Source: a virus (lineage: Duplodnaviria > Heunggongvirae > Uroviricota > Caudoviricetes). Taken from it: 64,000 bases of DNA. Below, piece by piece: positions 9,703 to 64,000 of this stretch (position 1 is the first letter of the stretch; each line of letters starts with the position of its first letter). A program made the translations under genes and the position numbers. The stretch is from the IMG/VR virus record IMGVR_UViG_2740892442_000004; one strand, written 5' to 3'. The notes under the pieces are model-generated. The model saw only the letters and a program-made list of their open reading frames with translations. It ran no database searches and was not told the origin of the DNA.

Positions 9703-9777
9703 GATGGTGTAGCTCAGCGGTAGAGCAGTTGGCTGTTAACCAACTGGTCGGTGGTTCGAATCCACCCACCATCGCCA
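9703..9777 (+). tRNA. tRNA-Asn (anticodon GTT)
   Basis: Cloverleaf: acceptor gatggtg/caccatc, D-arm tagctcagcggtagagc, anticodon loop ctGTTaa, T-loop ggttcgaatcc, CCA end. Confidence 0.75.
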
Positions 9778-9782
9778 ATTTA

Positions 9783-9869
9783 GGGGAGTTAGTCCGTAGA
9801 GGTAGCGGTGTAGACTGTAAATCTACTGTCATGGCGACTCGGGTGGTTCGACTCCATCACTCCCCACCA
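9783..9869 (+). tRNA. tRNA-Tyr (anticodon GTA), long variable arm
   Basis: Acceptor ggggagt/actcccc, anticodon stem-loop gtagaCTGTAAAtctac, T-loop ggttcgactcc, CCA end. Confidence 0.65.
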
Positions 9870-9873
9870 AATT

Positions 9874-9949
9874 GCCGGTTTAGCTCAGTTGGTAGAGCAG
9901 TCGCTTTGTAAGCGAATGGCCAGCGGTTCAAGTCCGTTAACCGGCACCA
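9874..9949 (+). tRNA. tRNA-Thr (anticodon TGT)
   Basis: Acceptor gccggtt/aaccggc, D-arm tagctcagttggtagagc, anticodon loop ttTGTaa, T-loop ggttcaagtcc, CCA end. Confidence 0.65.
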
Positions 9950-10269
9950 ACACAACAGGTAAGAGCATTGGGCGAATCGGCGATACTGACCCACAAGGCC
10001 GTAAATCGATAGAGTCAGACCAGTGCTCTTACCGTTGTGAGGAAGTGCAGCTCTTTGAAGCAACCAGAAGATAAGCATCTGGCTTCACAACACAACGATA
10101 ATATCATTACGGTTAATCGTCGTTCATGTGCACAATGACTGGTCGAAAGGTAGTGATCTTACCGTTGTGATGAATGCACAGGCTGATGTGCCGCAACTAC
10201 AGTAGTGCGCGCTTTGCGGGGCTTGCTACAACCCTGTGTCGGAGTTCAGCACCGACCATCACAATAGCT

Positions 10270-10356
10270 GGAGAGTAGGGAGCATGGTGCTCAAGCGGTC
10301 TTGAAAACCGTCCCATTGTGCAAACGATGATGGTTCGATTCCATTACTCTCCGCCA
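10270..10356 (+). tRNA. tRNA-Ser (anticodon TGA), long variable arm
   Basis: Acceptor ggagagt/actctcc, anticodon stem-loop gcggtCTTGAAAaccgt as in enterobacterial tRNA-Ser(UGA), T-loop ggttcgattcc, CCA end. Confidence 0.7.
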
Positions 10357-12238: not shown

Positions 12239-12259
12239 CGGCTCACAGGAGCCGTTTTT
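12239..12259 (+). terminator. Rho-independent terminator
   Basis: cggctcacaggagccg followed by ttttt. Confidence 0.6.
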
Positions 12260-12442: not shown

Positions 12443-13545
12443 ATGAAAAATAGCTTTGACAGAGCACGCGCTGCGGAGAACACCTCAAAAGAGGCGATAG
12501 AGTATCTCGAAAGAGCATCTCAAATGCAGGCCGTTATGATCTCGCAGGTTAGCAATGACATGAGATTCTCGGACGCATTCATGTTATTCACTCGCTTATC
12601 TCTGCTGATAACCAGACGTCGGCCAGAGATCGCTGTTCATTGTATTTTGATACATGTTTTGCCGCACATTGCCGATGTAAAAGTAAGTGACATTAATAGG
12701 TTCATGGTGAACCAACTGGTCAACCCACTAATACTGGATGGCAAAATTGTTATGGGCCGCCGCGTTTTCTCTCTGATGAAGCAGTTCCTTAGCTGGTGCG
12801 CCTTCCAGGGGATGATAGACGTGTCACCGTTAAACGATATGTCACTTAACAAAGTTGCCGGTGGCGCAAAGCCCACACCTCGCGAGCGGAAGCTGACCGA
12901 CGCAGAGGTATGGGTGTTCTGGAATATATGGGACTACTTCAATGTGTGTGCTGGTACAAAATGGGCGGCCAGGCTATGTCTTGTATCCGCAAGACGACCT
13001 GACGAAGTACTGCGGGCTAAAAAAAGTGAGTTCAATCTTAAGCGTGGGGTTTGGAATCAAGGCAAGAGGAACAAATCTGCCCGTGAGCATTCTCTGCCTT
13101 TAAGCTCATTAATGCGCACTTGTATTGAAGAGTTGTTCGAATATGGTAAAGACAGCCAGTGGCTCGTGCCTTCGAATAAAAAAATCGGGAAAGACCTTCC
13201 TATGTCTAAAGTGGCAATAGCCAGGCATTACGTCGTATTCTGGAACGACCAGAACTGATGGAGCTTGAGCCATTTACACCCCGAGATTTGCGCCGTACTG
13301 CGCGTAGTTACTTCCCAGCATTAGGCATAAGCCAGGAGGTATCACGTAAAATCATGAACCACAGTCTTGAGGGGATAGATCGGGTCTACGACCGGCACGA
13401 TTATATGGACGAGATGCGAGACGCCTTAGAAAGTTTCTCGACGTACATCGCATCAATCGTAGAGCAACCGGATTTAGACGAAATTGACCACAAATTTAAG
13501 GGAGATCGTCTATCAACAGAGCTTATTCGTGTAAATTTTTCATAG
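12443..13545 (+). CDS. tyrosine recombinase/integrase, apparently frameshifted near 13258 (possible pseudogene or indel error)
   Basis: Upstream ORF has LVSARRPDE box I-like Arg; downstream ORF has TPRDLRRTARSYF and MNHSLEGIDRVYDRHDY catalytic motifs; the two ORFs abut in different frames. Confidence 0.5.
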
Positions 13546-25216: not shown

Positions 25217-26160
25217 GTGAATTATCTCTTCGTAGATGGCAATAGCTGGGTTATTACCATCAACAATCTGACAAATTGCACAACGGCGAAATGGAAGTAC
25301 AGGCTGCTTTCGGCTTTGTTAAGAACGTCCGTCGTTATGCCTCCATCCTCCATGCCCGACCTATGATTCTTTGGGATGGATTTAGTGACAAGCGTCGCGA
25401 CTTTTACCCGGACTACAAAGCAAATCGCGACGACGATCCTGATATGAAAAAGATGAAGGAAGGCTTTGCTATCCAGAAGCCATACATCCTCAAAATGATG
25501 ACCGCGCTTGGAGTTACCCAACTCATTGCAAAAGATGCAGAAGCGGATGATCTGGCCGGGCTGCTGGTATCCCGCATGGCACCGCAGCCAACCGTTGAAC
25601 ACATCTATCTGTTAACAGGCGATAGCGACTGGCTTCAGTTAGTTCGTGAAAACGTAAGCTGGGTAAGCCTGCGTGAAGACGCCAAAAACAAGCAGGTTAA
25701 TTTTGAGCAATTTGCGGAGCTGACAGGATTCGCCACGCCTCGCGCATTTTTGGAAGCAAAAGCATTACAAGGAGATAACTCGGACAACATTAGCGGTGTT
25801 GGTGGCATTGGTGCTGGCGGTGCGAAAGAGCTGCTGCATGAATGGGGAAGTGTCGCAACGATGGTACGCGGCATCAACGACGGCTCAATCGTGGTTAATA
25901 AAGGGCGTCATAAGACCGCCTTCAACAAACTAGCGAAGAATGCCTTCAACGAGAAAACAGGCTGTCGAATGCTCGAAGCGTTCAAGAGAAACATCACGCT
26001 AATGAACCTGATTGAGACGAAGTTTCCGCCTACCGAAATCGAAACAATCAAAGGCAATCGTGACGTGAAAGCATTCGAGCAACTGTGCTACGAGCTGAAT
26101 TTCCGTTCGTTCCTTGAAGACCTTGAAGTGTTTGTTCTTCCATTCGAAAGGTATTGCTAA
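25217..26160 (+). CDS. 5'-3' exonuclease / flap endonuclease, apparent frameshift near 25245-25280
   Basis: N-terminal VNYLFVDGNSW in one frame; remainder (AEADDL, GDNSDNISGVGGIG H3TH) in another. Confidence 0.6.
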
Positions 26161-26428: not shown

Positions 26429-27502
26429 ATGGCAAAAGGAAAATCCGCACTGGCACTTGCTCTGAAAAAGAAAATCGGTAGCAACGACGAAATTCAGAAA
26501 GTAACTCATTGGATTGATACAGGCTTTCCACCGTTAAACAAAGCTATTTCTGGTCGTTACGATGGCGGCTTCCCATGTGGTCGTATCGTCGAAGTATTCG
26601 GTCCTCCAAGTGCAGGGAAAACGTTCCTTGCAACAGCAGCGATGATCTCCGCTCAAAAACAAGATGGTCTGGCGGTATTCCTCGATCATGAAAACAGTTT
26701 TGACGTTGGCCTGGCTGTCGCCAATGGCCTGAACGCAGATGAGGATGACGGTCAGTGGGTATACAAGCAGCCAGATACCTTCGAAGACTCTGTAGAGTTG
26801 ATCGGCACAATACTTAAATTGGTTCGTGATGAAGAGCTTATCCCCGAATCAGCACCAATCTGTATCGTGGCTGACTCTCTTGCGTCTATGGTTCCGAACT
26901 CCAAAGCCGAGAAGTTCGAAAAGATGGCTGAAGGCACTGCCAAAGACAAAGATCAGCTAAACATGAACGACAATACGGCACTGGCTCGTGCGACGAGTGC
27001 GAACTTCCCTACTCTGGCTTTGTGGGCACGCAAATACAACGCCTGCATCATCTTCTTGAATCAGGTTCGCACAAAAATCGGTGTAATGTTTGGCGACCCT
27101 ACTACGTCGCCAGGTGGAGATTCACCGAAGTTCTACGCTTCTGTACGTATCCGTCTTGGTGCATCGGTGATGAAGGATGGTAAAGAGAAGATCGGCCAGG
27201 ACGTAGGCGCAGAATGCATCAAAAACAAAGTTGCACCACCGTATGGCAAATGCACCTGGAAATTCTACTTCGATCCTACTCGTGGCCTCGACGTTATCGA
27301 ATCGCTCGTCGAGTACATGCTGGAAGAAGGATACCTGCCAAAGAACGCCAGCGGGCGAGTTGAAATTGGTGACAAGAAATACACCAAATCGCAGATCGTC
27401 GAGATGTATCGGGAGAAGCCACTGGCTGAAATCATTGCGGCTTTGCAGGCAATCGACGACCGAAGAGCAAAAGACAACCCCACCGAGTCAGTAGAAGAGT
27501 AA
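26429..27502 (+). CDS. RecA/UvsX-like recombinase
   Basis: Walker A GPPSAGKT; RecA-fold core; 357 aa. Confidence 0.7.
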   Translation: MAKGKSALALALKKKIGSNDEIQKVTHWIDTGFPPLNKAISGRYDGGFPCGRIVEVFGPPSAGKTFLATAAMISAQKQDGLAVFLDHENSFDVGLAVANGLNADEDDGQWVYKQPDTFEDSVELIGTILKLVRDEELIPESAPICIVADSLASMVPNSKAEKFEKMAEGTAKDKDQLNMNDNTALARATSANFPTLALWARKYNACIIFLNQVRTKIGVMFGDPTTSPGGDSPKFYASVRIRLGASVMKDGKEKIGQDVGAECIKNKVAPPYGKCTWKFYFDPTRGLDVIESLVEYMLEEGYLPKNASGRVEIGDKKYTKSQIVEMYREKPLAEIIAALQAIDDRRAKDNPTESVEE

Positions 27503-27798: not shown

Positions 27799-28628
27799 AT
27801 GAAGAAAGGTTTACTTGCAGTTGCTCTGGCGGCTATTTGCACAATGGGTCTTACTGGCTGTGATCGCGTGGAGCTGGATACGTTGGCATCAAAGTAAACA
27901 AATTAGGTGAAGACAAAGGGATTGGTGAAGTGGTTGGCGTTGGTCGCCAATGGACAGGTCTTAACACCGAACTTTACGTATTCCCGACCTTCAAACAAAT
28001 GAAGACCTACGACGAGCCGTTCACATTCCAGATGAGTGACGGTACTGCTATTGGTCACAAAATTGGCGTTGCGTATCTGGTTAATCGTGACAAGGTAACG
28101 ACGGTGTTCCAGACCTATCGCAAAGGCGTAGACGATATCACCGAATCAGATCTGCGTCAGAAAATTGCCGACTCTCTAAACCGTTTGGCCAGCCGTATGA
28201 CCACTGACTCATTTATCGACGGTGGTAAGGCACAATTGCTGGACAACGCACTGAAAGATATTCAGAAAGAGATGTCTCCGGTTGGTATTGAGGTACTGAG
28301 CCTGTCATGGGTTGGAAAGCCTGATTACCCAAAAACTGTCATTGAATCTATTAACGCCAAAGTAACGGCTAACCAGCGTACTCTGCAACGTCAGCAGGAA
28401 GTTGAACAACGTAAAGCTGAGGCGAATATGCTACGTGAACAGGCTAATGGTGAAGCTGATGCTATCCGTGCTCGTGCGCAAGCAGAAGCAGACGCCATTC
28501 GTCTGCGCGGTGAAGCTCTGCGTCAAAACCCGAACGTTATGGAACTGGAAGCCATCAATAAATGGAATGGCCAGTTACCGCAGTACATGACTCAAGGGGC
28601 TAACACTCCTTTCATTACAGTGAAATAA
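27799..28628 (+). CDS. SPFH/band-7 domain lipoprotein, apparent frameshift near 27862-27870
   Basis: Lipobox signal MKKGLLAVALAAICTMGLTGC stops after 32 aa; SPFH body continues in another frame (…QRQQEVEQRKAEANMLREQANGEADAIRARAQAEADAIRLRGEAL). Confidence 0.5.
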
Positions 28629-29691: not shown

Positions 29692-30027
29692 ATGAAGGCC
29701 ATCCCATTCGCGCTGTTGTTCCTTTCTTCGATCGTTGTGGCCGACACCACTGTTTATCAGTGTGAAATGTCTGTAGCCGACGTTAAGAATGGCGCTCTTA
29801 CCGACGTCATAAAAGCACCATATGGAGCGATGGTCGTAGACAGCGGCGACCAGTTCTATGTTGTGCGTGACGATCGAGTGTTGTCATCCCCATATCTCAC
29901 AAATCGTAATGGCAAATTAACCGGCGTCGGAGAAGACCACTTCGTATACAACAAATACAAGGGCTTCTATGGTGTTCACGCTTCTCAGCAAAGCTACCTT
30001 TTCGATGACTGCAAGGAGGTTGGATAA
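29692..30027 (+). CDS. hypothetical secreted protein
   Basis: Signal-peptide-like N-terminus MKAIPFALLFLSSIVVA. Confidence 0.45.
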   Translation: MKAIPFALLFLSSIVVADTTVYQCEMSVADVKNGALTDVIKAPYGAMVVDSGDQFYVVRDDRVLSSPYLTNRNGKLTGVGEDHFVYNKYKGFYGVHASQQSYLFDDCKEVG

Positions 30028-30224
30028 TGGCATTAACACTGGCAGGTCTGGAAATCGAGAAAACAAGCGGCTACTGGCGTGCTAAGGGTTTCAAGCAGCC
30101 TGGCATTCTTGAGCGTCTGGAACGTGAAGATGGGTATATCGTCCACCAGCGGCGTGAATGGCGTATGTACGATCCAGAAACAGGAAAACTGACTACAAAA
30201 GCCGGAACACTTTGGGTCTGTTAA
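30027..30224 (+). CDS. hypothetical small protein
   Basis: 65 aa ORF overlapping upstream stop. Confidence 0.35.
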   Translation: MALTLAGLEIEKTSGYWRAKGFKQPGILERLEREDGYIVHQRREWRMYDPETGKLTTKAGTLWVC

Positions 30225-30284
30225 AGAAAATACACTAAATGCAAACTGACTGCGGCACGTTCCGCAGTCATATTTCATAGTCGT

Positions 30285-30695
30285 CACCGCTGACAGCATA
30301 CACAATCAACTACCGCTGATAGCATATCGAGAGTCTATCTCACCGCTCACAGCATACTTTACTCGATTTTTTACCGCTGACAGCATACTTAAGACATTGC
30401 ATGAATAATGTGTACCGGTATGGGTATAACCAGAACAAAATTACCGCTGGCAGCATACGAAGGTCTGACATATACCATTAATTACCGCTGATAGCATATC
30501 CAAACTGGAATGCACTCTTCGAGGTTAGTAACCACTGGGGAGGTATGACAGAGCATTGAGTGGTGATAGATGATTTACCGCCCACAGCATACGTTCATCT
30601 CACTATACCGCTGGTAGCATATATTTAACCGTTTACAGCATACTTTTCAGAAAAATAGCCGCTGATAGCATACATTTCACCGCTGACAGCATATC
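30285..30695. repeat. Iteron array, about 11 copies (consensus ACCGCTGACAGCATAC), downstream of repA
   Basis: Degenerate direct repeats at irregular 20-70 bp spacing. Confidence 0.75.
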
Positions 30696-37625: not shown

Positions 37626-39939
37626 ATGATAAGCATCGTAAAACGTAACGGCCAAACAGAGCCGTTATCCGAAGAAAAATACAACCGCGTCGTAATGTAT
37701 GGCGTAGAAGGCATTCGTGGTGTAAGCGCATCCGCTGTAGCAATGGGAGCTGCGGCCAGCATTTTTGATGGGATTACCACCAGCCAGTTGCATGAGGCTT
37801 TGGTTAAATCTGCCGCTGATTTGATCTCACCAGAAGCACCAAATTACTCACAGGTGCTGCCCGCCTGAACATTTTTAAAATCCGCAAAGATGCCTTCGGT
37901 CGTTACGACTATCCGAACTTCTACCAACACATTGTCAAGAACGTTAACAAGGGCGTTTATGACAAGGATTTGCTGACACATTATTCGTTTGAAGAGATCG
38001 AAGAACTCGGCAATTACATTAAGCCGAAACGTGACGATCTTTTTGGCTATGCAGCTACGGTGCAGTTGCAAAGCAAATACCTCGTTCAAAACCGTGTTAC
38101 TGGTGAGATTCATGAGGGGCCGCAACATATCTATATGCTGGTAGGCATGTGTCTGTTCCAGAATTGGGAAGACGACTGCGCTGGCAAAACACGTATGGAG
38201 ATGGTCAAAGGTTTCTATGACGTTACAAGTACGTTCAAACTGTCTCTGCCCACACCAATCATGGCCGGCGTCCGTACTCCAACCCGTCAGTTCTCCAGTT
38301 GTGTGCTGATTGAGTCTGGCGATAGTCTGAAAGGGATTAGTGCAGCTTCAGCCGCAATTATCGACTACGTTTCACGTCGTGCTGGAATTGGTATTGGTTT
38401 TGGCCGTATCCGTGCGCTGGGCAGCGAGATCCGCAATGGTGAAGCCACCCATACCGGAGTTATTCCATTCCTGAAGCATTTCCAGACGGCTGTTAAATCT
38501 TGTTCGCAAGGTGGTGTTCGTGGTGGCGCAGCAACAGCGTTTTACCCGATCTGGCATCTTGAAGTTGAAAGTCTGCTGGTGGTGAAAAATAACCGTGGTA
38601 TTGATGAAAACCGCGTTCGCCATCTTGATTACGGCGTCATGAGTAACCGTCTAATGTACCGTCGACTCGTCAGAAGCGAGAACATCACTCTGTTCAGCCG
38701 CATGATGTGCCTGATATGTACGAAGCCTTCTTCACAGACCAGGAGCTGTTTGAAAAGCTGTACCATAAATACGAAGCCGATGATTCAATTCGCAAGAAGC
38801 CAGTACCTGCCATTGAGCTGTTCTCATCTCTGATGCAGGAACGAGCGTCCACGGGCCGAATTTATATTGCGAACGTAGATCATATTAACGAGCATGGCGC
38901 TTTCATTCCTGCTCTTGCACCTGTTCGCCAGTCAAACCTGTGCATGGAGATCACTCTACCCACTCGTCCACTGGCATTTACCGACGACCCGAACGGTGAG
39001 ATCGCGCTATGCACTTTATCCGCTTTTAACCTCGGAGCCATCCGTTCACTGGAGTCTCTTAAAGAGGTGGCGTTCTATGCCGTTGCTGCACTGGATTCGT
39101 TACTGGATTATCAAGACTATCCGATGGAGGCAGCCGAAGTGCCTGCCAAAGCTCGTCGTAGCTTGGGAATTGGTGTAACCAACTTTGCTTATTACCTGGC
39201 AAAGAATGGCGTTCGTTATTCTGATACCGCTGGCAATAAACTGGTGCATGAAACGTTCGAAGCTATCCAGTATTACCTTCTTGATGCCAGCTGCCGACTT
39301 GCTGAAGCAAAAGGTGAGTGTGACTGGTTTGAGCAGACCAAGTACGCAATTGGTCAGTTGCCGATCGACCATTACCGTTCTTCATTAGACGAAAGTGGCG
39401 AAACCAACTTTGAGTTAAAGATGCCGTGGGAAGAACTGCGTGAACGTATTGCAAAATACGGCCTTCGCAACTCCACACTGACGGCACAAATGCCATGCGA
39501 GACTTCCAGCCAGATCACTAATTCCACCAACGGCATCGAACCGCCTCGTGGCCCGGTGTCGGTGAAATCTTCTAAGGACGGCATCGTTAAGATGGTCGTG
39601 CCTGAGTTTGAAAAACTGAAGGAACAGTATGAATACCTGTGGGATATGCCGGACAACCGCGGCTATCTGACAAAGGTGGCGATCATCCAGAAGTTCTTTG
39701 ACCAGGCTATTTCAGCCAATACCAACTATGACCCTTCTCGCTTTGAAGGCGATAAAGTCCCAATGATGACGCTACTGTCAGATTTGCTTCTCGCCTACAA
39801 GATGGGAGTTAAAACGCTTTACTACCACAACACCAGAGATGGGGCAGGAAAGCGTGATGACGACGAACCGCAGAATCCACTGACGCAAGCTGTAGCCGTC
39901 GAGCCAGAAGATGAGTGCGACGGAGCCTGCAAAATCTGA
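37626..39939 (+). CDS. nrdA: Ribonucleotide reductase large subunit NrdA, interrupted by two apparent frameshifts (about 37856 and 38695)
   Basis: ATP-cone (37626-37868), catalytic core (37970-38833) and C-terminus (38707-39939) in three frames; each closely matches enterobacterial NrdA. Confidence 0.7.
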
Positions 39940-42306: not shown

Positions 42307-43410
42307 GTGTCACTCCTTTTGAATCGTGAGCATACGAACGGTCAGGTAACAAACGCATCGTATGCAAAAGTTATTGAGACGGTGCTTAAAAGCGGCGTGC
42401 AGGCTGATGATCGCACAGGCACTGGTACTTTAAGCACCTGCTACGTTCCCTCTTACTACATGCTTACTGGTGGGACTGTGCCGCTTATTTCTGGAAAGGC
42501 GGTAAATCTTAAGCCACTGCTTGTCGAACTTGAGTGGTATCTGAAAGGCACGGGCAACATCCAATTTCTCAAGGATAACGGCGTTAAGATTTGGGATGCA
42601 TGGGCCGATGAGAATGGCGATTTGGGGCCGGTTTACGGTAAGCAGTGGCGTCGATGGGAAGATACCCGCATCGTGAGCCATAGTGAATATCTGAGCAAGA
42701 TCGCTACTTTCCGTGAACGCGGGTACAAAGTCGAGGGATACCTGGGTATCAGTGAAGATCGCGTAGTGCTGTCCCGTGAAATCGATCAGCTACAGCGTAT
42801 TGTCGATACACTGCGCACGAACCCTACCGATCGTCGCATCATGCTTAACGCATGGAACGTAGGCGAGCTTGAGGATATGAAACTGCCACCTTGCCACTTT
42901 GTCTTCTCTTTGTGGAGTCGTGAGCTGGATTTTGAAACCCGTTTAACGATGGCAACTGACATTGGTCTTCAACACAGTCGCCTCGGTTACGAGTCTATCT
43001 ACACCAAGATGCTATACGATCTGGAGATGGACGGCAGTGTTACTGAAGCTGAACTGGATGAACTTGGAATCCCCAAACGCATCCTCAACTCCTGCCTCGT
43101 ACAGCGTAGCGTAGACACTTTTGTTGGTATGCCATTCAATATTGCTGGCTATGGCATTCTCACTCATTTTCTCGCGAAGATTACGGGTCACATGGCCGGT
43201 GCATTTGTGCATTTTGGCTTTGACGTGCATTTGTACAACAACCACATGGAAGGTGTGTGTGAGCTAATGAAACGACAGGCTCCAGAGCATTCAGATCCGG
43301 TCGTTATTTTCCCTCATGAATGGTCAGAGTTGGATGATTTCAAATGGGACGAGGTTTTAATTCTTGGCTATGACCCTCTATCGTGGATCAAGGTTCCAGT
43401 GGCGGTGTGA
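42307..43410 (+). CDS. thyA: Thymidylate synthase (ThyA-like) with internal insertion
   Basis: DRTGTGTLS, GPVYGKQWRRW, catalytic PPCHF, LVQRSVDTF...PFNIAGYG; about 50-65 aa insert after the catalytic Cys; start uncertain (ORF opens 42280). Confidence 0.7.
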   Translation: MSLLLNREHTNGQVTNASYAKVIETVLKSGVQADDRTGTGTLSTCYVPSYYMLTGGTVPLISGKAVNLKPLLVELEWYLKGTGNIQFLKDNGVKIWDAWADENGDLGPVYGKQWRRWEDTRIVSHSEYLSKIATFRERGYKVEGYLGISEDRVVLSREIDQLQRIVDTLRTNPTDRRIMLNAWNVGELEDMKLPPCHFVFSLWSRELDFETRLTMATDIGLQHSRLGYESIYTKMLYDLEMDGSVTEAELDELGIPKRILNSCLVQRSVDTFVGMPFNIAGYGILTHFLAKITGHMAGAFVHFGFDVHLYNNHMEGVCELMKRQAPEHSDPVVIFPHEWSELDDFKWDEVLILGYDPLSWIKVPVAV

Positions 43411-43411
43411 T

Positions 43412-43825
43412 ATGGCAAGAGGTATGTATGTCTTATGCGAAATTGAAGGTGTGCTGGCAAATGCCAGCCATCGTAAATCAGTATCTGACGCGGATGCAGG
43501 CCAGCTCATTGCCGGTGATGAACTCATTTTCCCCACCAGCCGTATGTTGCGTGGTTTTGCTCGCTCAGGGGCTGAAGTGGTGCTTATCAGTAGCCGCTCT
43601 GAAACTCTTGAAGCGCCAACTAAACGATGGCTGAAAGATTTTGGCGTTGATTATGACTGGCTTCATCTCGTACCGAATGGCACCAGTTATGAGAAGCATA
43701 TTAAGCGCACATTAGCGGAGCATAAAGGCGATCTGCTTATCGCTGCGCTGGTGCACGATCCTCGACTCCGTGCCGCTTTAGCCGACTCTCACCATCGACC
43801 GGTCATCTATGAGGTGAGCAAATGA
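43412..43825 (+). CDS. hypothetical protein
   Basis: ORF opens at 43364; ATG 43412 just after thyA stop. Confidence 0.4.
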   Translation: MARGMYVLCEIEGVLANASHRKSVSDADAGQLIAGDELIFPTSRMLRGFARSGAEVVLISSRSETLEAPTKRWLKDFGVDYDWLHLVPNGTSYEKHIKRTLAEHKGDLLIAALVHDPRLRAALADSHHRPVIYEVSK

Positions 43826-44298
43826 AGATGATCGCTGCTGTTGGCCGTAACTATGAGATCGGCATAGCGAATGAACTCCCCTGGCGTTGTTCTACCGATC
43901 TGAAGCTATTTAAGAGACTCACCAAAAACGCCACTGTCGTTATGGGGCGTAAAACGATGGAAAGTCTCAAACGCCCTCTTCCAGAGCGTCATAACCTCGT
44001 TTTGACGCGCTCTCATGGCTTTGTACCAAATGGATTCTACCCTGCTGGTGTGGATGATGTGTTGCGATTACCAGAGCCTGTGTGGGTGATTGGCGGGGAA
44101 CAAATTTACTCGCTATTCATGCCGCATGTTGAAGAGATTTGGCTCTCCCACATCGGCGTTGATGTGCCAAACGCCGATGCATTCTTCCCGGCAAGCATGA
44201 TGCGTAATTTAGGCTTTGTGCCTGTTGAAACAGCTTATACCCAACGAGCCAGCGAGGAAGAGCCTGGCTTTTCGCAGATCGTATACAGAAGGTCGTAA
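43822..44298 (+). CDS. folA: Dihydrofolate reductase
   Basis: IAAVGRNYEIG...LPW...VVMGRKT...RPLPER...VIGG motifs; 158 aa. Confidence 0.8.
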   Translation: MKMIAAVGRNYEIGIANELPWRCSTDLKLFKRLTKNATVVMGRKTMESLKRPLPERHNLVLTRSHGFVPNGFYPAGVDDVLRLPEPVWVIGGEQIYSLFMPHVEEIWLSHIGVDVPNADAFFPASMMRNLGFVPVETAYTQRASEEEPGFSQIVYRRS

Positions 44299-44732
44299 TG
44301 GATTACCGGATTGGGATCACTGGTGCTCAGGGCAGTGGGAAAACAACCCTGGCTAAATATATCGACAAACATTACGGAATCCCTTACGTGGATGCTGGTG
44401 TCGGAAGTTTGATGAGCCGCCTCGGTGTTCGAGTAGGTGATTCTATGCCTCTATATGAGCGGCTTCAGATTCAAATGGAAATAGCAAAGCATATAGAGCT
44501 ACTTACGCGTGGTGTTGAAGGCTTTGTTATCGATCGCACACCTGCTGATGTTATGGCCTACACGTTGGATTTGGTCGGCCATACAAATGAAGATCGGTGT
44601 ATTGAGTTAGCCCTCGATATCGAAAAGTTTTGCCACAAAACTGCTATTTCAAACTTTAACGCCATTGCTGCTTACGCCCGGGAGTCGCTCTCTCAGAGCG
44701 AGATTACTTGCGATCACAACGAGCATCATTAG
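44298..44732 (+). CDS. P-loop nucleotide kinase-like protein (may continue in another frame to about 44941)
   Basis: Walker A GITGAQGSGKTTLAKY; downstream ORF 44708-44941 in a shifted frame could be its C-terminus. Confidence 0.45.
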   Translation: MDYRIGITGAQGSGKTTLAKYIDKHYGIPYVDAGVGSLMSRLGVRVGDSMPLYERLQIQMEIAKHIELLTRGVEGFVIDRTPADVMAYTLDLVGHTNEDRCIELALDIEKFCHKTAISNFNAIAAYARESLSQSEITCDHNEHH

Positions 44733-45002
44733 ACCGTCTGTATGTCGCTCGTATTGATGCGTTGATGTGCGGGGAACTGACAAAAATTCACCTGCATCCG
44801 CAAAGGGGAGATCTGCAAACCTTCGTCGTTTCCAACCGATATCGCACGGTTGAAGCAAGAGCCAGATCAGTGATGAGAATGCTAGATAACGCTGTAGAAA
44901 AGATAGAAAACCGGTTCTGTGGCCGAGTGACCGTTCATTAGAAATTGTTCGCCTCTTCGACATTGCGACAATAAAACTCTCAAAATGGGTTAAGGATAAA
45001 AA

Positions 45003-45421
45003 ATGTTTAGTGAAATGTTGCTTGAAGATGAACTGGATCGGAAAACAACAGAGGCTTTGATTCGTGTAGCGGACGAACATTCCCGGTCGCTTATGAGCGA
45101 TCGAGAGGCTCGTCTGGCTATTCGTGCCATATTCGAACTGCGCAGGGGCTTGTTGGTACACAAGTGGGTGAAGCCATTAACATCGCCATGTCTCAGTTCA
45201 GTGAAGGCAGTAAAAAGCCTCTGTTTCCTATGCATTTGATGCTGGCTGGTGGCACGGTGCTTTATATCTCTGTTTGTCTGGATAGCAACCAAATCAATAT
45301 TCTCAACACTGTGTCAGGTAAGTGGAAAGATCCGATTGTCTGTGAAACCAGTGAAGAAACTTTGAAAAAAGCGGCTCAATTTGTACGTAGCGCACTACTT
45401 AAGGGCGCTAAGAAGTTGTAA
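45003..45421 (+). CDS. hypothetical protein, apparent frameshift at GGGG run near 45170
   Basis: ORFs 45003-45239 and 45164-45421 overlap in adjacent frames across a homopolymer. Confidence 0.35.
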
Positions 45422-48650: not shown

Positions 48651-48734
48651 TTTATTTTAATAATTATTAACACGCACGCGTGTGCGCACGCGCGAGGAAA
48701 AAAAATCGGCGCGGCGCTTGATTCAGGAGTTTAT

Positions 48735-49325
48735 ATGACGACGAAGACACCAGCCCGATCGCAAGAAAAAACTCGCAAAAAAGCCAAAAACAAAAATTCT
48801 CCCCGCACCAATTCCACAACGCCTGTCGTAGAGTTCAATCCCCAGCTTAAAACCGTGAAAATCTTCAGTGATGGCTCTTGCCTTAAAAATCCGGGTGGCC
48901 CGGGCGGTTACGGTATCGTTCTTCAGTATCGTGGAGAGGAACGCGAGTTCTCAGATGGTTTTCATAGCACCACCAATAACCGCATGGAGATGATGGGGGC
49001 ACTTATCGGGCTGGAGCGTTTGAAATATCCATGCAACGTTATTTTGCACTCTGATAGCCAGTATCTGAAAAACGGCATGACACAGTGGATGAAATGGTGG
49101 AAACGCAATGGATGGGTGACTTCTGACAAAAAACCGGTAAAGAATGTTGATCTGTGGAAGCGTCTGGATGAGGCTGCAAGTCGACATAATGTTCGCTGGA
49201 AGTGGGTTAAAGGTCACGCCGGGCATCGTGAAAATGAAATATGTGATCGACTCGCGAAGATCGCAGCTTTTTCCGCAGCAGATATGCCTCACAAGAAAGA
49301 TATTGGTTTTGTTTACAACAAGTAG
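48735..49325 (+). CDS. rnhA: Ribonuclease HI with Lys/Arg-rich N-terminal extension
   Basis: [49 protein letters not shown] RNase H motifs; AGGAG Shine-Dalgarno. Confidence 0.8.
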
Positions 49326-57290: not shown

Positions 57291-57916
57291 TGACCACGGT
57301 TAACAATAAGAAATGCTACCCAAGCGAGAAATATCTTAATGAGCTGATCACCAACATAGAGTTTGCGGCAAGGGCACCAGTTGAAGTCGTGAGAGCAATG
57401 GCAGCAGAGCTACAGAAGCGGCGCGAAGCTGATAGTGCCGAACCTGCAAGTAATCATGAAGAGTTGCCGCTTGATTATCTCCAAGGTCAAAAAGATGGTC
57501 TTGAATGGGCTGCGCAGCTTGCAGAAGCAAATCACCCACAAACTGGCGACTGGCTTTACGATGACCCGCTGGAGCTGGCTAAAGCTATCAGAAAAGGTCC
57601 TGACATGCCCGAATTCGATGGGCCAACTCCGGTAACTCCGGATGGTTGGATAAGCTGTAGTGAGCAGATGCCTGTAATCGGCGAGCTAAATTGGAGAACT
57701 GGTTTTCCTTTGCTGATTACGTGTGAGATCGGCGTTATACCAGCTTATTACGGCTTTGTGAGCGTTAATGGGGATAAGCATTATGGTTTTATGGAAAGTT
57801 TTAAATACGGAGACGATCGCGGCGGCCATCCTAAAACTAATGAATATGGTCTGATTAGCAATGTCACACACTGGATGCCGCTACCAGAACCTCCGCAGGA
57901 GTCGAAGAGTGAATAA
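57290..57916 (+). CDS. hypothetical protein
   Basis: 208 aa ORF. Confidence 0.45.
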   Translation: MTTVNNKKCYPSEKYLNELITNIEFAARAPVEVVRAMAAELQKRREADSAEPASNHEELPLDYLQGQKDGLEWAAQLAEANHPQTGDWLYDDPLELAKAIRKGPDMPEFDGPTPVTPDGWISCSEQMPVIGELNWRTGFPLLITCEIGVIPAYYGFVSVNGDKHYGFMESFKYGDDRGGHPKTNEYGLISNVTHWMPLPEPPQESKSE

Positions 57917-59710: not shown

Positions 59711-59898
59711 CTCAGGAAGGAAAAAGTAGCTTCCGCGCAATTTAGGCCAGACAAGGCTTTCGCAAAAGTCAACAGAGAGAAAAAATTTGTTAAAAATAAC
59801 GTTTGTTGGAATTATATATATTTATGCCTTTCAATAGTTAGCATCTTATTAACATCTTTTTTAAGAGATAGAGTTCAAAAATATATAGCTTCAACATA

Positions 59899-59918
59899 TA
59901 CTGTATGTATATACAGTA
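59899..59918 (+). promoter_or_regulatory. LexA (SOS) box upstream of UmuD'-like gene
   Basis: TACTGTATGTATATACAGTA matches CTGT-N8-ACAG perfectly; 17 nt upstream of ATG 59935. Confidence 0.75.
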
Positions 59919-59934
59919 TTAAGAGGCGAGTATT

Positions 59935-60324
59935 ATGGGCTTCCCTTCTCCTGCGGCGGATTATGCTGAGAGCCGTATTTCTCTTGATCAGCAGATAATT
60001 AGACATCCTTCAGCGACCTACTTCATGAGGGCAGCTGATAGTCATCATCGTGAGGGAATATTACAGGGTGCATTGCTGGTGGTCGATTCCTCACTTACCC
60101 CGGTTGATGGTTCTCTGCTTGTATGCGCTCTGGATGGGGAATATCGCGTAAAAAGATACCGGAAGTATCCACGTCAGCATCTGGAGGATTTAAGAACCGG
60201 TAAGAAGGAAGCATTGCCAAAGGATGACGATGGATGCACGGGCAGCAATGCCGTGTTTGGTGTGATCACTCACATTATCAACGACGCAAGAAGTGGCGAG
60301 TTTGATGATTGTCCCGTGATGTAG
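59935..60324 (+). CDS. UmuD'-like S24 peptidase-fold protein (resembles phage P1 HumD-type UmuD' analogue)
   Basis: Begins MGFPSPAADY, i.e. at the position of the UmuD Cys24-Gly25 cleavage site; Ser (ADSHH) and Lys (RVKRY) dyad positions retained; no umuC-like gene follows. Confidence 0.65.
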   Translation: MGFPSPAADYAESRISLDQQIIRHPSATYFMRAADSHHREGILQGALLVVDSSLTPVDGSLLVCALDGEYRVKRYRKYPRQHLEDLRTGKKEALPKDDDGCTGSNAVFGVITHIINDARSGEFDDCPVM

Positions 60325-60336
60325 GAGAACTGATTA

Positions 60337-60360
60337 GGCGGTGCAATGCACCGCCTTTTT
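60337..60360 (+). terminator. Rho-independent terminator
   Basis: ggcggtgcaatgcaccgcc followed by ttttt; ends 2 nt before apbC stop codon. Confidence 0.65.
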
Positions 60361-60361
60361 A

Positions 60362-61462
60362 TCACACTGCGCGGAATGCGATTTCGCCAGGTATTACTTC
60401 ACCTTGCCAATACATTTGGGCAGCAACGCGATCTGCGAGGTCACGATAAATAGCCGTAAATTCGCTATCTGGACGACTAATAACGGTTGGTGTTCCGTTA
60501 TCCAGATCTTCACGAAGAGAGATATGAAGTGGCATTTGGCCTAACAACTGCGTGTTGTATTTCTCGGCCAGTTTCTGTGCGCCACCGGTGCCAAAAATTG
60601 GCTCGTGATGACCGCAGTTACTGCAAATATGCACACTCATGTTTTCGACGATACCCAGTACCGGCACTTCGACTTTTTCGAACATCACAATGCCTTTCTT
60701 CGCATCGATCAGCGCGATGTCTTGCGGCGTAGTTACCACAACCGCACCAGTTACAGGAATGTTCTGCGCCAGCGTCAACTGAATATCACCAGTGCCCGGC
60801 GGCATATCGAGAACGAGATAGTCCAGATCAGGCCATAGAGTTTCCTGCAACATCTGCATCAGCGCCTTGCTGGCCATCGGTCCACGCCACACCATTGCAT
60901 TGTCGTCGGTGACCAGATAACCAATAGAGTTGGTTGCCAGGCCATGAGACATGATAGGTGCCATGTGAGTACCGTCAGGTGAGGTTGGACGTTGGTTTTC
61001 CGCGCCCAGCATGGTTGGAATTGATGGACCATAGATATCGGCATCCAAAATACCAACTTTCGCACCTTCAGCAGCCAACGCCAGTGCCAGGTTTACCGCC
61101 GTGGAGGATTTACCCACGCCGCCCTTGCCTGAGCTGACGGCGATAATGTTCTTAACGCCATTAATGCCTGGTTGGTTTTTGACGCGCTTAAGCGTGGCAA
61201 TGTTGTACGACAGCTTCCAGTCAATAGCCTTTGCGCCAGTGATACGGAGCAGATCACCACTACATTGCTCTTTCAGGTCTTCAAAAGGCTTATTCCACAC
61301 GAAAGGCATGATTAGTTCGACATGCAGTGTGTCATCCATCAACGCAACATGGTGTAACGCTTTAAGCGTAGTCAGGTTGTGTTTCAGGGTTGGGTGCTGA
61401 AAATTAGCCAGCGTACCGGCTACCATTGCTCTCAGGGCATCCGGCGATTTGGACTCGCTCAT
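60362..61462 (-). CDS. apbC: Fe-S cluster carrier ATPase ApbC/Mrp
   Basis: 366 aa; essentially collinear with E. coli Mrp as recalled; P-loop SSGKGGVGKSS; CxxC-containing ICSNCGHHEP. Confidence 0.9.
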   Translation of the reverse strand: MSESKSPDALRAMVAGTLANFQHPTLKHNLTTLKALHHVALMDDTLHVELIMPFVWNKPFEDLKEQCSGDLLRITGAKAIDWKLSYNIATLKRVKNQPGINGVKNIIAVSSGKGGVGKSSTAVNLALALAAEGAKVGILDADIYGPSIPTMLGAENQRPTSPDGTHMAPIMSHGLATNSIGYLVTDDNAMVWRGPMASKALMQMLQETLWPDLDYLVLDMPPGTGDIQLTLAQNIPVTGAVVVTTPQDIALIDAKKGIVMFEKVEVPVLGIVENMSVHICSNCGHHEPIFGTGGAQKLAEKYNTQLLGQMPLHISLREDLDNGTPTVISRPDSEFTAIYRDLADRVAAQMYWQGEVIPGEIAFRAV

Positions 61463-61619
61463 CCCGTCTCCTTTATTTTAATTTGCGCAATTGTCGCCTT
61501 GTAGTGTACTCCAGCTACGACATTTAATCATTTATGAGAAATGCTGTTATCACATGGCAGACATAAGGCCATTTTGTTACTATCAAGCCCCTTTTCACTA
61601 CAAAGAAGTAATGCCTACT

Positions 61620-63653
61620 ATGACCCAAGTCGCGAAGAAAATTCTGGTGACGTGCGCGCTGCCGTACGCTAACGGCTCAATCCACCTCGGCCATATGCTG
61701 GAGCACATCCAGGCTGATGTCTGGGTTCGTTACCAGCGAATGCGCGGCCACGAGGTTAATTTCATCTGTGCCGACGATGCCCACGGTACGCCGATCATGC
61801 TGAAAGCACAGCAGCTTGGTATCACACCGGAGCAGATGATTGGCGAAATGAGTCAGGAACACCAGACTGATTTCGCAGGCTTTAACATCAGCTATGACAA
61901 CTATCACTCGACGCACAGCGAAGAGAACCGTCAGTTGTCTGAGCTTATCTATACTCGCCTGAAAGAGAACGGTTTTATTAAAAACCGCACTATCTCTCAG
62001 TTGTACGACCCGGAAAAAGGCATGTTCCTGCCGGATCGTTTTGTAAAAGGCACCTGCCCGAAATGTAAAGCGCCAGATCAATACGGCGATAACTGTGAAG
62101 TCTGCGGCGCAACATATAGCCCGACTGAATTGATCGAGCCGAAATCGGTGGTTTCTGGCGCTACCCCGGTAATGCGTGATTCCGAACACTTCTTCTTTGA
62201 TCTGCCTTCTTTCAGCGAAATGTTGCAGGCATGGACCCGCAGCGGCGCGTTGCAGGAGCAGGTGGCGAACAAAATGCAGGAATGGTTTGAATCCGGCCTG
62301 CAACAGTGGGATATCTCCCGAGATGCGCCTTACTTCGGTTTTGAAATTCCGAACGCGCCGGGCAAATATTTCTACGTCTGGCTGGACGCGCCGATTGGCT
62401 ACATGGGTTCCTTCAAGAATCTGTGCGACAAGCGCGGCGATACCACCAGCTTCGATGAATACTGGAAGAAAGACTCCACCGCCGAGCTGTACCACTTCAT
62501 CGGTAAAGATATTGTTTACTTCCACAGCCTGTTCTGGCCTGCCATGCTGGAAGGCAGCAACTTCCGCAAGCCGACCAACCTGTTTGTTCACGGCTATGTG
62601 ACGGTGAACGGCGCGAAGATGTCCAAGTCTCGCGGCACCTTTATTAAAGCCAGCACCTGGCTGAATCATTTTGACGCCGACAGCCTGCGTTACTACTACA
62701 CTGCGAAACTCTCTTCGCGCATTGATGATATCGATCTCAACCTGGAGAATTTCGTTCAGCGCGTGAATGCCGATATCGTGAACAAAGTGGTTAACCTGGC
62801 CTCCCGTAATGCAGGCTTTATCAACAAGCGTTTTGACGGCGTGCTGGCAAGCGAACTGGCTGACCCGCAACTGTACAAAACCTTTACTGATGCCGCTGAA
62901 GTGATTGGCGAAGCATGGGAAAGCCGCGAATTTGGTAAAGCTATCCGTGAAATCATGGCATTGGCTGACCTGGCTAACCGCTATGTCGATGAACAGGCTC
63001 CGTGGGTGGTGGCGAAGCAGGAAGGACGCGATGCCGATCTGCAGGCGATTTGCTCTATGGGCATTAACCTGTTCCGCGTGCTGATGACGTACCTGAAGCC
63101 GGTACTGCCGAAACTGACTGAACGTGCAGAAGCATTCCTGAATACAGAACTGACCTGGGATGGTATCCAGCAACCGCTGCTGGGCCATAAAGTGAATCCG
63201 TTCAAGGCACTGTATAACCGCATCGATATGAAGCAGGTTGAAGCACTGGTGGAAGCATCCAAAGAAGAAGTGAAAGCCACAGCCGCACCGGTAACTGGCC
63301 CACTGGCTGACGACCCGATTCAGGAAACTATCACCTTTGACGACTTCGCCAAAGTTGACCTGCGCGTGGCGCTGATTGAAAACGCAGAGTTTGTAGAAGG
63401 TTCTGACAAACTGCTTCGCCTGACGCTGGATCTCGGTGGTGAAAAGCGTAATGTCTTCTCAGGCATCCGTTCCGCTTATCCAGATCCACAGGCACTGATT
63501 GGTCGTCACACCATTATGGTGGCTAACCTGGCACCACGTAAAATGCGCTTCGGTATCTCTGAAGGCATGGTGATGGCTGCTGGCCCCGGCGGGAAAGATA
63601 TCTTCCTGTTAAGCCCGGATGCTGGTGCTAAACCTGGCCACCAGGTTAAGTAA
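61620..63653 (+). CDS. metG: Methionyl-tRNA synthetase
   Basis: 677 aa from [26 protein letters not shown] (HIGH) with KMSKS; near-identical to E. coli MetG as recalled; track ORF opens upstream at 61491 with non-native extension. Confidence 0.92.
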
Positions 63654-63673
63654 TTAAACAACCTCTCTTCGCA

Positions 63674-63699
63674 ATGCCCGGCAACACGCCGGGCATTTT
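63674..63699 (+). terminator. Rho-independent terminator after metG
   Basis: atgcccggcaacacgccgggcat followed by ttt. Confidence 0.65.
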
Positions 63700-63736
63700 C
63701 ATATAGACACAATCCCTTCTGATTTACACAGTACCT

Positions 63737-63802
63737 AAAACAATTTGTTTTCTGCCTTTTGTTGATGGAGATAATAAACCACATAAGAAAACAACTTGTT
63801 TT
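63737..63802 (+). promoter_or_regulatory. Two tandem phage-type palindromes (AAAACAATTTGTTTT, AAAACAACTTGTTTT) plus ACCACATAAGAAAAC leader
   Basis: Same elements as upstream of genes in the phage-like region; located downstream of metG. Confidence 0.45.
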
Positions 63803-63814
63803 GGAGTGGTTGAA

Positions 63815-64000
63815 ATGTTGAACATTACCCAAGCCTACCAGGTGGCATTGATCAGCTCATCTCATACATCAGAGGAAGATGCTCGCCGATTCATGATCGC
63901 AAGCAATGAGCTGGATTGGGTTTCACAAATTGAGTACGGTTGCATTGTCCACGCCGGGTTACAGGACGATGACTGGAAAGATGAGTTGCGTCGATATGGT
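63815..64000 (+). CDS. hypothetical protein (partial; 3' end beyond window end)
   Basis: ATG 63815 after the tandem palindromes; open to the window end. Confidence 0.4.
   Translation, partial: MLNITQAYQVALISSSHTSEEDARRFMIASNELDWVSQIEYGCIVHAGLQDDDWKDELRRYG

Follow-up and report, generated by a model that had tools for sequence, protein, structure and literature searches.

The window (the whole stretch of 64,000 nt analyzed here, from IMG/VR record IMGVR_UViG_2740892442_000004) contains a gene nrdA, coding for the alpha subunit of a class Ia ribonucleotide reductase, that is distributed over three open reading frames (ORFs) situated in three different frames (Table 1), as the preliminary description of this sequence had stated. 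The nrdA region is 2701 nt long in the window and 2703 nt in its relatives, and the frame is lost at two single-nucleotide deletions. The first junction was rightly placed near 37856, although it had been read as a 2-nt insertion and it is instead the loss of one G from a GG pair; the second, near 38695, had been correctly ascribed to the loss of one C from a CCC run. The 771-aa product deduced after repair contains the ATP-cone (PF03477), all-alpha (PF00317) and barrel (PF02867) domains, with the barrel complete (1–523 of 523). Among the top-ranked relatives listed, nrdA is annotated as a single intact gene of 2316 nt, with the exception of RM9131, where it is interrupted by an IS91 element; overall, the gene is in one piece in the five close relatives and in some 200 plasmids. 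The exact fragments of 80, 287 and 410 aa were looked up and none is on record; a 407-aa version matched only a metagenome scaffold from ENA, in whose nrdA a C to T change has created a nonsense codon, situated 34 nt upstream of the CCC run; the CCC to CC deletion is not present there.

Table 1. Interrupted genes of the window and their single-nucleotide deletions (window coordinates).
Feature	Coordinates	Strand	Deletion	Codon affected	Premature stop	Remarks
nrdA, class Ia ribonucleotide reductase alpha subunit	37626..39939	+	two, 1 nt each			three frames
nrdA ORF 1	37626-37868					80 aa; ORF list
nrdA ORF 2	37970-38833					287 aa; ORF list
nrdA ORF 3	38707-39939					410 aa; ORF list
nrdA deletion 1	37856	+	GG to G	77 of 771	37866	gap vs 5/5 references
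nrdA deletion 2	38698-38699	+	CCC to CC	358 of 771		gap vs 5/5 references
Tyrosine recombinase/integrase	12443-13545	+	CCC to CC at 13221-13222	260 of 367	13256	
5'-3' exonuclease/flap endonuclease (FEN)	25217-26160	+	CC to C at 25246	10 of 314		
SPFH/Band 7 protein	27799-28628	+	CC to C at 27874	25 of 276	27895	
Small Cra-like gene	30027-30238	+	GGGG to GGG at 30214-30216	63 of 70		
P-loop AAA_28 protein	44298-44941	+	GG to G at 44670	124 of 214	44730	
139-aa hypothetical (hyp139)	45003-45421	+	AAA to AA at 45136-45137	45 of 139	45237	

Six other genes are broken once each, for a total of eight deletions in seven genes. Every lesion is the loss of a single nucleotide from a homopolymer of 2–4 nt and there are no insertions; from the frameshifts of 1–2 nt originally proposed, those of 1 nt hold for all eight sites and those of 2 nt for none. 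The split of the flap endonuclease was located accurately, at about 25250, and those of four other genes are real but were given a different place or cause: the position indicated for the SPFH gene, 27865, is 9 nt upstream of the lesion; those for the tyrosine recombinase (about 13258) and the P-loop kinase (about 44720) correspond to the premature stop codons and not to the deletions; and the GGGG run held responsible in the ORF at 45003–45421 is not the site, which is a run of A. The eighth site, in the small Cra-like gene, was absent from the earlier list. Putting one base back at each site restores full-length ORFs for all seven genes, with no internal stop codons and with complete matches to their Pfam domains, which are Phage_integrase for the integrase, 5_3_exonuc_N and 5_3_exonuc for the 5'-3' exonuclease, and Band_7 for the SPFH protein.

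The nrdA region showed 99.7% identity to Escherichia phage Cyrano and 77% to Salmonella phage SSU5. Matches of 95–99.9% identity were also obtained to some 170 PLSDB plasmids from E. coli/Shigella and to 200 RefSeq plasmids from E. coli. Judging from its collinearity and high identity with Cyrano/pLF82 and SSU5, and from the combination of plasmid replication genes and phage-type DNA metabolism genes, the element in the window is assigned to the SSU5 group of E. coli phage-plasmids, being similar to pLF82/Cyrano, and its virion module would lie outside the window. Cyrano, which is the same element as pLF82, is an SSU5-like phage-plasmid (PMC9928086). The whole window was aligned to five relatives: pAMPD01 (NZ_CP058309), Cyrano (OV696614), CP099286.1, pLR-60_2 (NZ_AP027572) and pMB3825A_2 (NZ_CP103696.1). 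The closest one, pMB3825A_2, is collinear over positions 1–64000, with 99 mismatches and two structural differences, and the only other indels are the eight single-nucleotide deletions and a difference in the length of a poly-A run at 48698. CP099286.1 is 99.75–99.78% identical to the window over 43.5 kb, and both of them share with Cyrano/pLF82 and the window a common set of genes for replication, recombination and nucleotide metabolism. The window differs from certain relatives in lacking a RecA intein (1263 nt), present in Cyrano, pAMPD01 and pLR-60_2, and the ISEcp1-blaCTX-M-14-IS903B unit, which in pMB3825A_2 is inserted within thyX; a segment of 124 nt in an iteron-like region adjoining repA is also absent from it. 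Separately, gene metG of the public relative pAMPD01 contains an indel cluster of its own.

A comparison with orthologous loci, suggested in the preliminary description as a check, revealed that the five aligned relatives are intact at all eight sites, so that each gap is present with respect to 5/5 references, and the deletions are private to the window except for the allele at 38698. Searches of PLSDB with 60-base queries found only the intact allele at the four sites examined, with the window allele in 0/172 plasmids for nrdA 38698 (intact in 172/172), 0/191 for the exonuclease (191/191), 0/174 for the SPFH gene (174/174) and 0/189 for the integrase (189/189). By exact scans, the window alleles were likewise absent from IMG/VR at five sites (37856, 13221, 25246, 27874 and 44670); the intact alleles were present in 19 contigs for 37856 and gave 34 hits for 25246 and 10 for 44670. 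The allele at 37856 was also absent from the GTDB representatives, and that at 38698 was found in 0 metagenome contigs, compared to 15 matches for the intact allele. Three sequences, H77, H90 and H92, in which the nrdA region match spans 2702 nt, were considered as possible carriers of an nrdA deletion and discarded, because their nrdA is intact and the difference in length is intergenic. The sole exception to privacy is an unrelated contig from IMG/VR, L028 (IMGVR_UViG_2617271087_000005), containing the same CCC to CC deletion at 38698. Its nrdA haplotype is different from that of the window, with SNPs on both sides of the deletion, at 194 nt upstream and at 48 nt downstream, and there is no further coding frameshift over its other 20 kb. 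This shared deletion could be either a recurrent systematic error or, at that one site, a real variant or natural hotspot.

The nature of the lesions was highly uniform. Seven of the eight deletions are losses of C or G, and six occur in the context AG[C]n/[G]nCT; this enrichment (p about 1e-7) was noticed post hoc and its p value is only descriptive. In turn, the 66 runs of at least 6 nt were unchanged, except for an A8 tract whose length is naturally variable in the relatives (A6 to A10). With respect to the five references, the window has only seven private substitutions, five of them transversions, against eight private deletions. Compared to CP099286.1, there were no substitutions in the SPFH, Cra-like, AAA and hyp139 genes, nor in nrdA, with 0 synonymous and 0 non-synonymous differences besides the two gaps. 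The window contains no IS elements and no internal nonsense codons, the sole nonsense change being one that turns the last sense codon of rnhA into a stop. Intergenic gaps at 12259, 12262 and 42222 with respect to CP099286.1 were evaluated as further errors and rejected; they are common to other references and represent natural variation in run length. Eight isolated coding frameshifts were counted along the 39.7 kb of coding sequence aligned from the window, whereas the same census on 81 loci of this plasmid family from IMG/VR and metagenomes found seven in 506 kb. The expectation for the window is thus about 0.55, with an excess of about 15-fold over the background (Poisson p about 1e-7).

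The sequence of the window corresponds letter by letter to positions 44283–108282 of the GenBank WGS contig JUDY01000008.1 (108,282 nt) from E. coli RCE04 (GCA_001630845.1), and its eight sites to contig positions 57503, 69528, 72156, 74496, 82138, 82980, 88952 and 89418. Two stretches of the window, 39474–59968 (20.5 kb) and 8109–31627 (23.5 kb), were compared directly with this contig and were 100% identical and gap-free along about 44 kb, both at the same offset of 44282 with respect to the window. Six of the eight deletions fall within these stretches, and the equal offset at either side of nrdA implies that both nrdA deletions are also present in JUDY01000008.1. Two proteins from the window with private substitutions, one of 164 aa and the DnaE of 1172 aa, are recorded in this contig and in no other, and the frameshifted genes, including those for the AAA_28 P-loop protein and the 139-aa hypothetical protein, are missing among its gene calls. 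Strain RCE04 (JUDY00000000) is a Crohn's-disease isolate carrying a pLF82-like plasmid contig, and its sequencing was by Ion Torrent PGM (318 chip, 200-bp kit), followed by assembly in MIRA 4.0 (PMC5517970). The draft is a 'meta-assembly', in which reads from six colonies were assembled jointly, and its authors indicate that artificial frameshifts in CDSs were only partly removed, since the tool used for correction makes artificial indels no more than about 2.5-fold less frequent (PMC5517970).

The PGM platform generates high-frequency indel (HFI) errors, which are predominantly deletions of C or G (Bragg et al., 2013; PMC3623719). Of the strand-asymmetric ones, 82% are in homopolymers of length 2–3; HFI errors occur about once per 1–2 kb of reference, seem to be motif-prone, cause frameshifts in assemblies and, at some sites, recur across runs (PMC3623719). 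The deletions in the window resemble them in affecting a single base, mostly C or G, in runs of 2–3 nt (one of 4), with one recurring context and causing frameshifts. They are sparser, at about one per 8 kb, as expected from the building of a consensus and the partial correction by the authors, and the errors remaining in a draft from six colonies should depend on coverage. We infer that it is the reads, rather than the DNA, that carry the deletions. Single-base under-calls or HFI deletions in homopolymers of 2–4 nt, mostly of C or G, would have been left in the consensus. The PGM/MIRA source and the caveat by the authors, the private alleles, the deletion-only and C/G-biased spectrum, and the lack of accompanying substitutions or nonsense codons all point in the same direction, and the eight frameshifts are very probably errors that persisted, uncorrected, in the consensus assembled from Ion Torrent PGM reads and not a product of pseudogenization. 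From the two options left in the preliminary description, homopolymer errors in the assembly are therefore strongly supported and pseudogenes in core functions are unsupported. Other assemblies have shown a similar outcome, with false deletions in short homopolymers that fragment genes and inflate pseudogene counts, and with genes restored by comparison to a reference (Kastor paper, PMC12007338; ONT, PMC6591954), although the platform for the window was not nanopore. Errors of the nanopore/Dcm type had been suggested by the overlap of three of the eight deletions with CCWGG (p about 4e-5 to 2e-4), since ONT consensus errors concentrate at Dcm motifs (PMC6591954). They were ruled out by the Ion Torrent source, and the overlap with Dcm motifs simply follows from the AG[C]n context that the deletions have in common (AGCC-WGG). 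The templates for PGM sequencing are products of emulsion PCR and, being amplified, methylation cannot cause the deletions seen in the window.

A genuine and recent pseudogenization, by which the RCE04 phage-plasmid would be losing functions for the lytic cycle and nucleotide metabolism through real −1 frameshifts, appears extremely unlikely. It would agree with the location of all eight deletions in genes dispensable for plasmid replication, with repA and dnaE intact, and with the loss of such genes in relatives, as seen with IS91 in nrdA of RM9131, ISEcp1-blaCTX-M-14 in thyX of pMB3825A_2, and the nonsense codon in nrdA from the metagenome scaffold. Indeed, the first and the last of these cases indicate that nrdA is dispensable for plasmid carriage, and hence its real inactivation is conceivable. 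Nevertheless, decay would have had to produce a single kind of lesion, with no insertion, internal nonsense codon or IS among the eight, and a private indel to substitution ratio of 8:7, with two deletions and zero substitutions in nrdA. Replication slippage favors long runs. The pattern in the window is the reverse, because short C/G runs of one context were affected and the long runs were spared. The excess of transversions among the private substitutions does not correspond to the signature of a mismatch-repair deficiency either, and a mismatch-repair-deficient host was discarded on this basis and on the sparing of long runs. Additionally, none of the hundreds of relatives has the window alleles at the four sites searched in PLSDB, and the platform and the caveat from the authors of RCE04 already account for the pattern. 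Even more remote is a recoding mechanism, in which programmed +1 ribosomal frameshifting or transcriptional slippage would allow expression of the genes; its sole support is the occurrence of the lesions in short homopolymers, and its probability becomes negligible because otherwise identical relatives are in frame at every site, with the frameshift conserved at none, and because a +1 event would be needed in each of eight different contexts.

A mixed situation, with mostly PGM errors and one or two real mutations, is also unlikely, and its best candidate would be the CCC to CC deletion in nrdA at 38698. In its favor, contig L028 carries an identical deletion on a different haplotype, in a sequence otherwise free of frameshifts over 20 kb. 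Against it, this allele was not found among PLSDB plasmids or metagenome contigs, its context is AG[C]n, as in five other deletions, and HFI sites can recur between runs (PMC3623719). The occurrence in two independent records might indicate that SSU5-like phage-plasmids have, in the CCC at codon 358 of nrdA, a true hotspot for recurrent −1 mutations, which we consider very unlikely; if this was so, the plasmid-borne ribonucleotide reductase would be switched off in some lineages.

The frameshifts call for caution in the use of this record, which, if taken literally, would point to a phage-plasmid that is losing its ribonucleotide reductase, integrase, flap endonuclease and other functions, whereas the evidence indicates an intact element with 'pseudogenes' that derive from the sequencing platform. 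Analyses of pan-genomes, pseudogenes or gene presence that include the RCE0x/JUD* Ion Torrent drafts will under-count intact genes. The broken genes can be repaired by the addition of one base at each of the sites in Table 1 and, in the real RCE04 plasmid, nrdA and the genes for the integrase, the 5'-3' exonuclease and the SPFH, Cra-like, P-loop and 139-aa proteins would most likely be intact.

Indels also clustered in a relative. Over a stretch of about 4 kb, equivalent to window positions 59890-64000, the public RefSeq record of pAMPD01 (NZ_CP058309.1) shows 15 private indels, and metG is annotated there in several 'frameshifted' pieces; the sequences of the window, Cyrano, CP099286.1 and pLR-60_2 are mutually consistent in this region. 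The pAMPD01 sequence is a further record from this plasmid family with assembly-type indel errors. Gene rnhA from pAMPD01 is also labelled 'frameshifted' by PGAP, and the poly-A tract preceding this gene contains eight residues in the window, seven in pMB3825A_2, six in Cyrano and ten in pAMPD01; the tract is either naturally hypervariable or error-prone. At the other end of rnhA, the final sense codon is TAA in the window (position 49323), whereas it is CAA in CP099286.1, pAMPD01 and pLR-60_2, and in Cyrano the difference falls instead at the base following the one changed in the window. The product deduced from the window is thus one residue shorter (196 aa versus 197 aa), and that of pMB3825A_2 is likewise annotated at 196 aa.

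Coordinates in the window of the features compared with related plasmids
Feature	Window coordinates	Remarks
tRNA genes (four)	9703-10356	Asn-GTT, Tyr-GTA, Thr-TGT, Ser-TGA
RecA-like gene	26429-27502	1074 nt, intein-free; junction at about 26618-26620
thyX	42307-43410	Site intact and empty; insertion point in pMB3825A_2 equivalent to 42447-42452
Dihydrofolate reductase (DHFR) gene	43822-44298	
Poly-A tract	48698-48705	About 30 nt upstream of rnhA

Gene nrdA also carries lesions in other records. In a metagenome scaffold from the same plasmid family (ENA ERZ28565275, scaffold_20397), a C to T change creates a stop codon at the equivalent of window position 38663, 34 nt upstream of the CCC run that is shortened in the window; because of this stop, the scaffold has a downstream nrdA ORF of 407 aa identical to that of the window. 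The change may be real or an error. The same CCC to CC deletion as in the window occurs, on a different haplotype, in the unrelated contig IMGVR_UViG_2617271087_000005 (handles L028 and L081), and no further coding frameshifts were found in the 20 kb of this contig that were read.

Between repA and the small Cra-like gene, the window lacks, at 30505/30506, a unique segment of 124 nt that is present in both CP099286.1 and pMB3825A_2. The surrounding region contains iteron-like repeats (ACCGCTGnnAGCATA), one copy of which lies inside the missing segment, and its absence from the window record may reflect either natural variation or an assembly collapse.

Gene content also varied among the relatives, which have three or four tRNA genes, with tRNA-Tyr missing from the annotations of pAMPD01 and Cyrano. 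The thyX gene of the closest relative, pMB3825A_2, is interrupted by a 4.8-kb ISEcp1-blaCTX-M-14-IS903B unit, and the two alignment blocks flanking the insertion overlap by 6 nt (TCCCTC), consistent with a target-site duplication. Gene thyX belongs to a nucleotide-metabolism block that also includes nrdAB, a MazG-like gene, a PNK-like gene and the DHFR gene. The last of these shows no codon differences from the copy in CP099286.1, and its counterpart in three further relatives is named in RefSeq as trimethoprim-resistant DfrA51 (WP_000781810.1). Lastly, the RecA-like gene of CP099286.1 and pMB3825A_2 contains no intein, the same state as in the window, and that of Cyrano, pAMPD01 and pLR-60_2 contains a 1263-nt insertion, annotated as a Hint-domain/LAGLIDADG homing endonuclease, within a CDS of 2340 nt. 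The intein of the RecA-like gene is polymorphic among members of this plasmid family.
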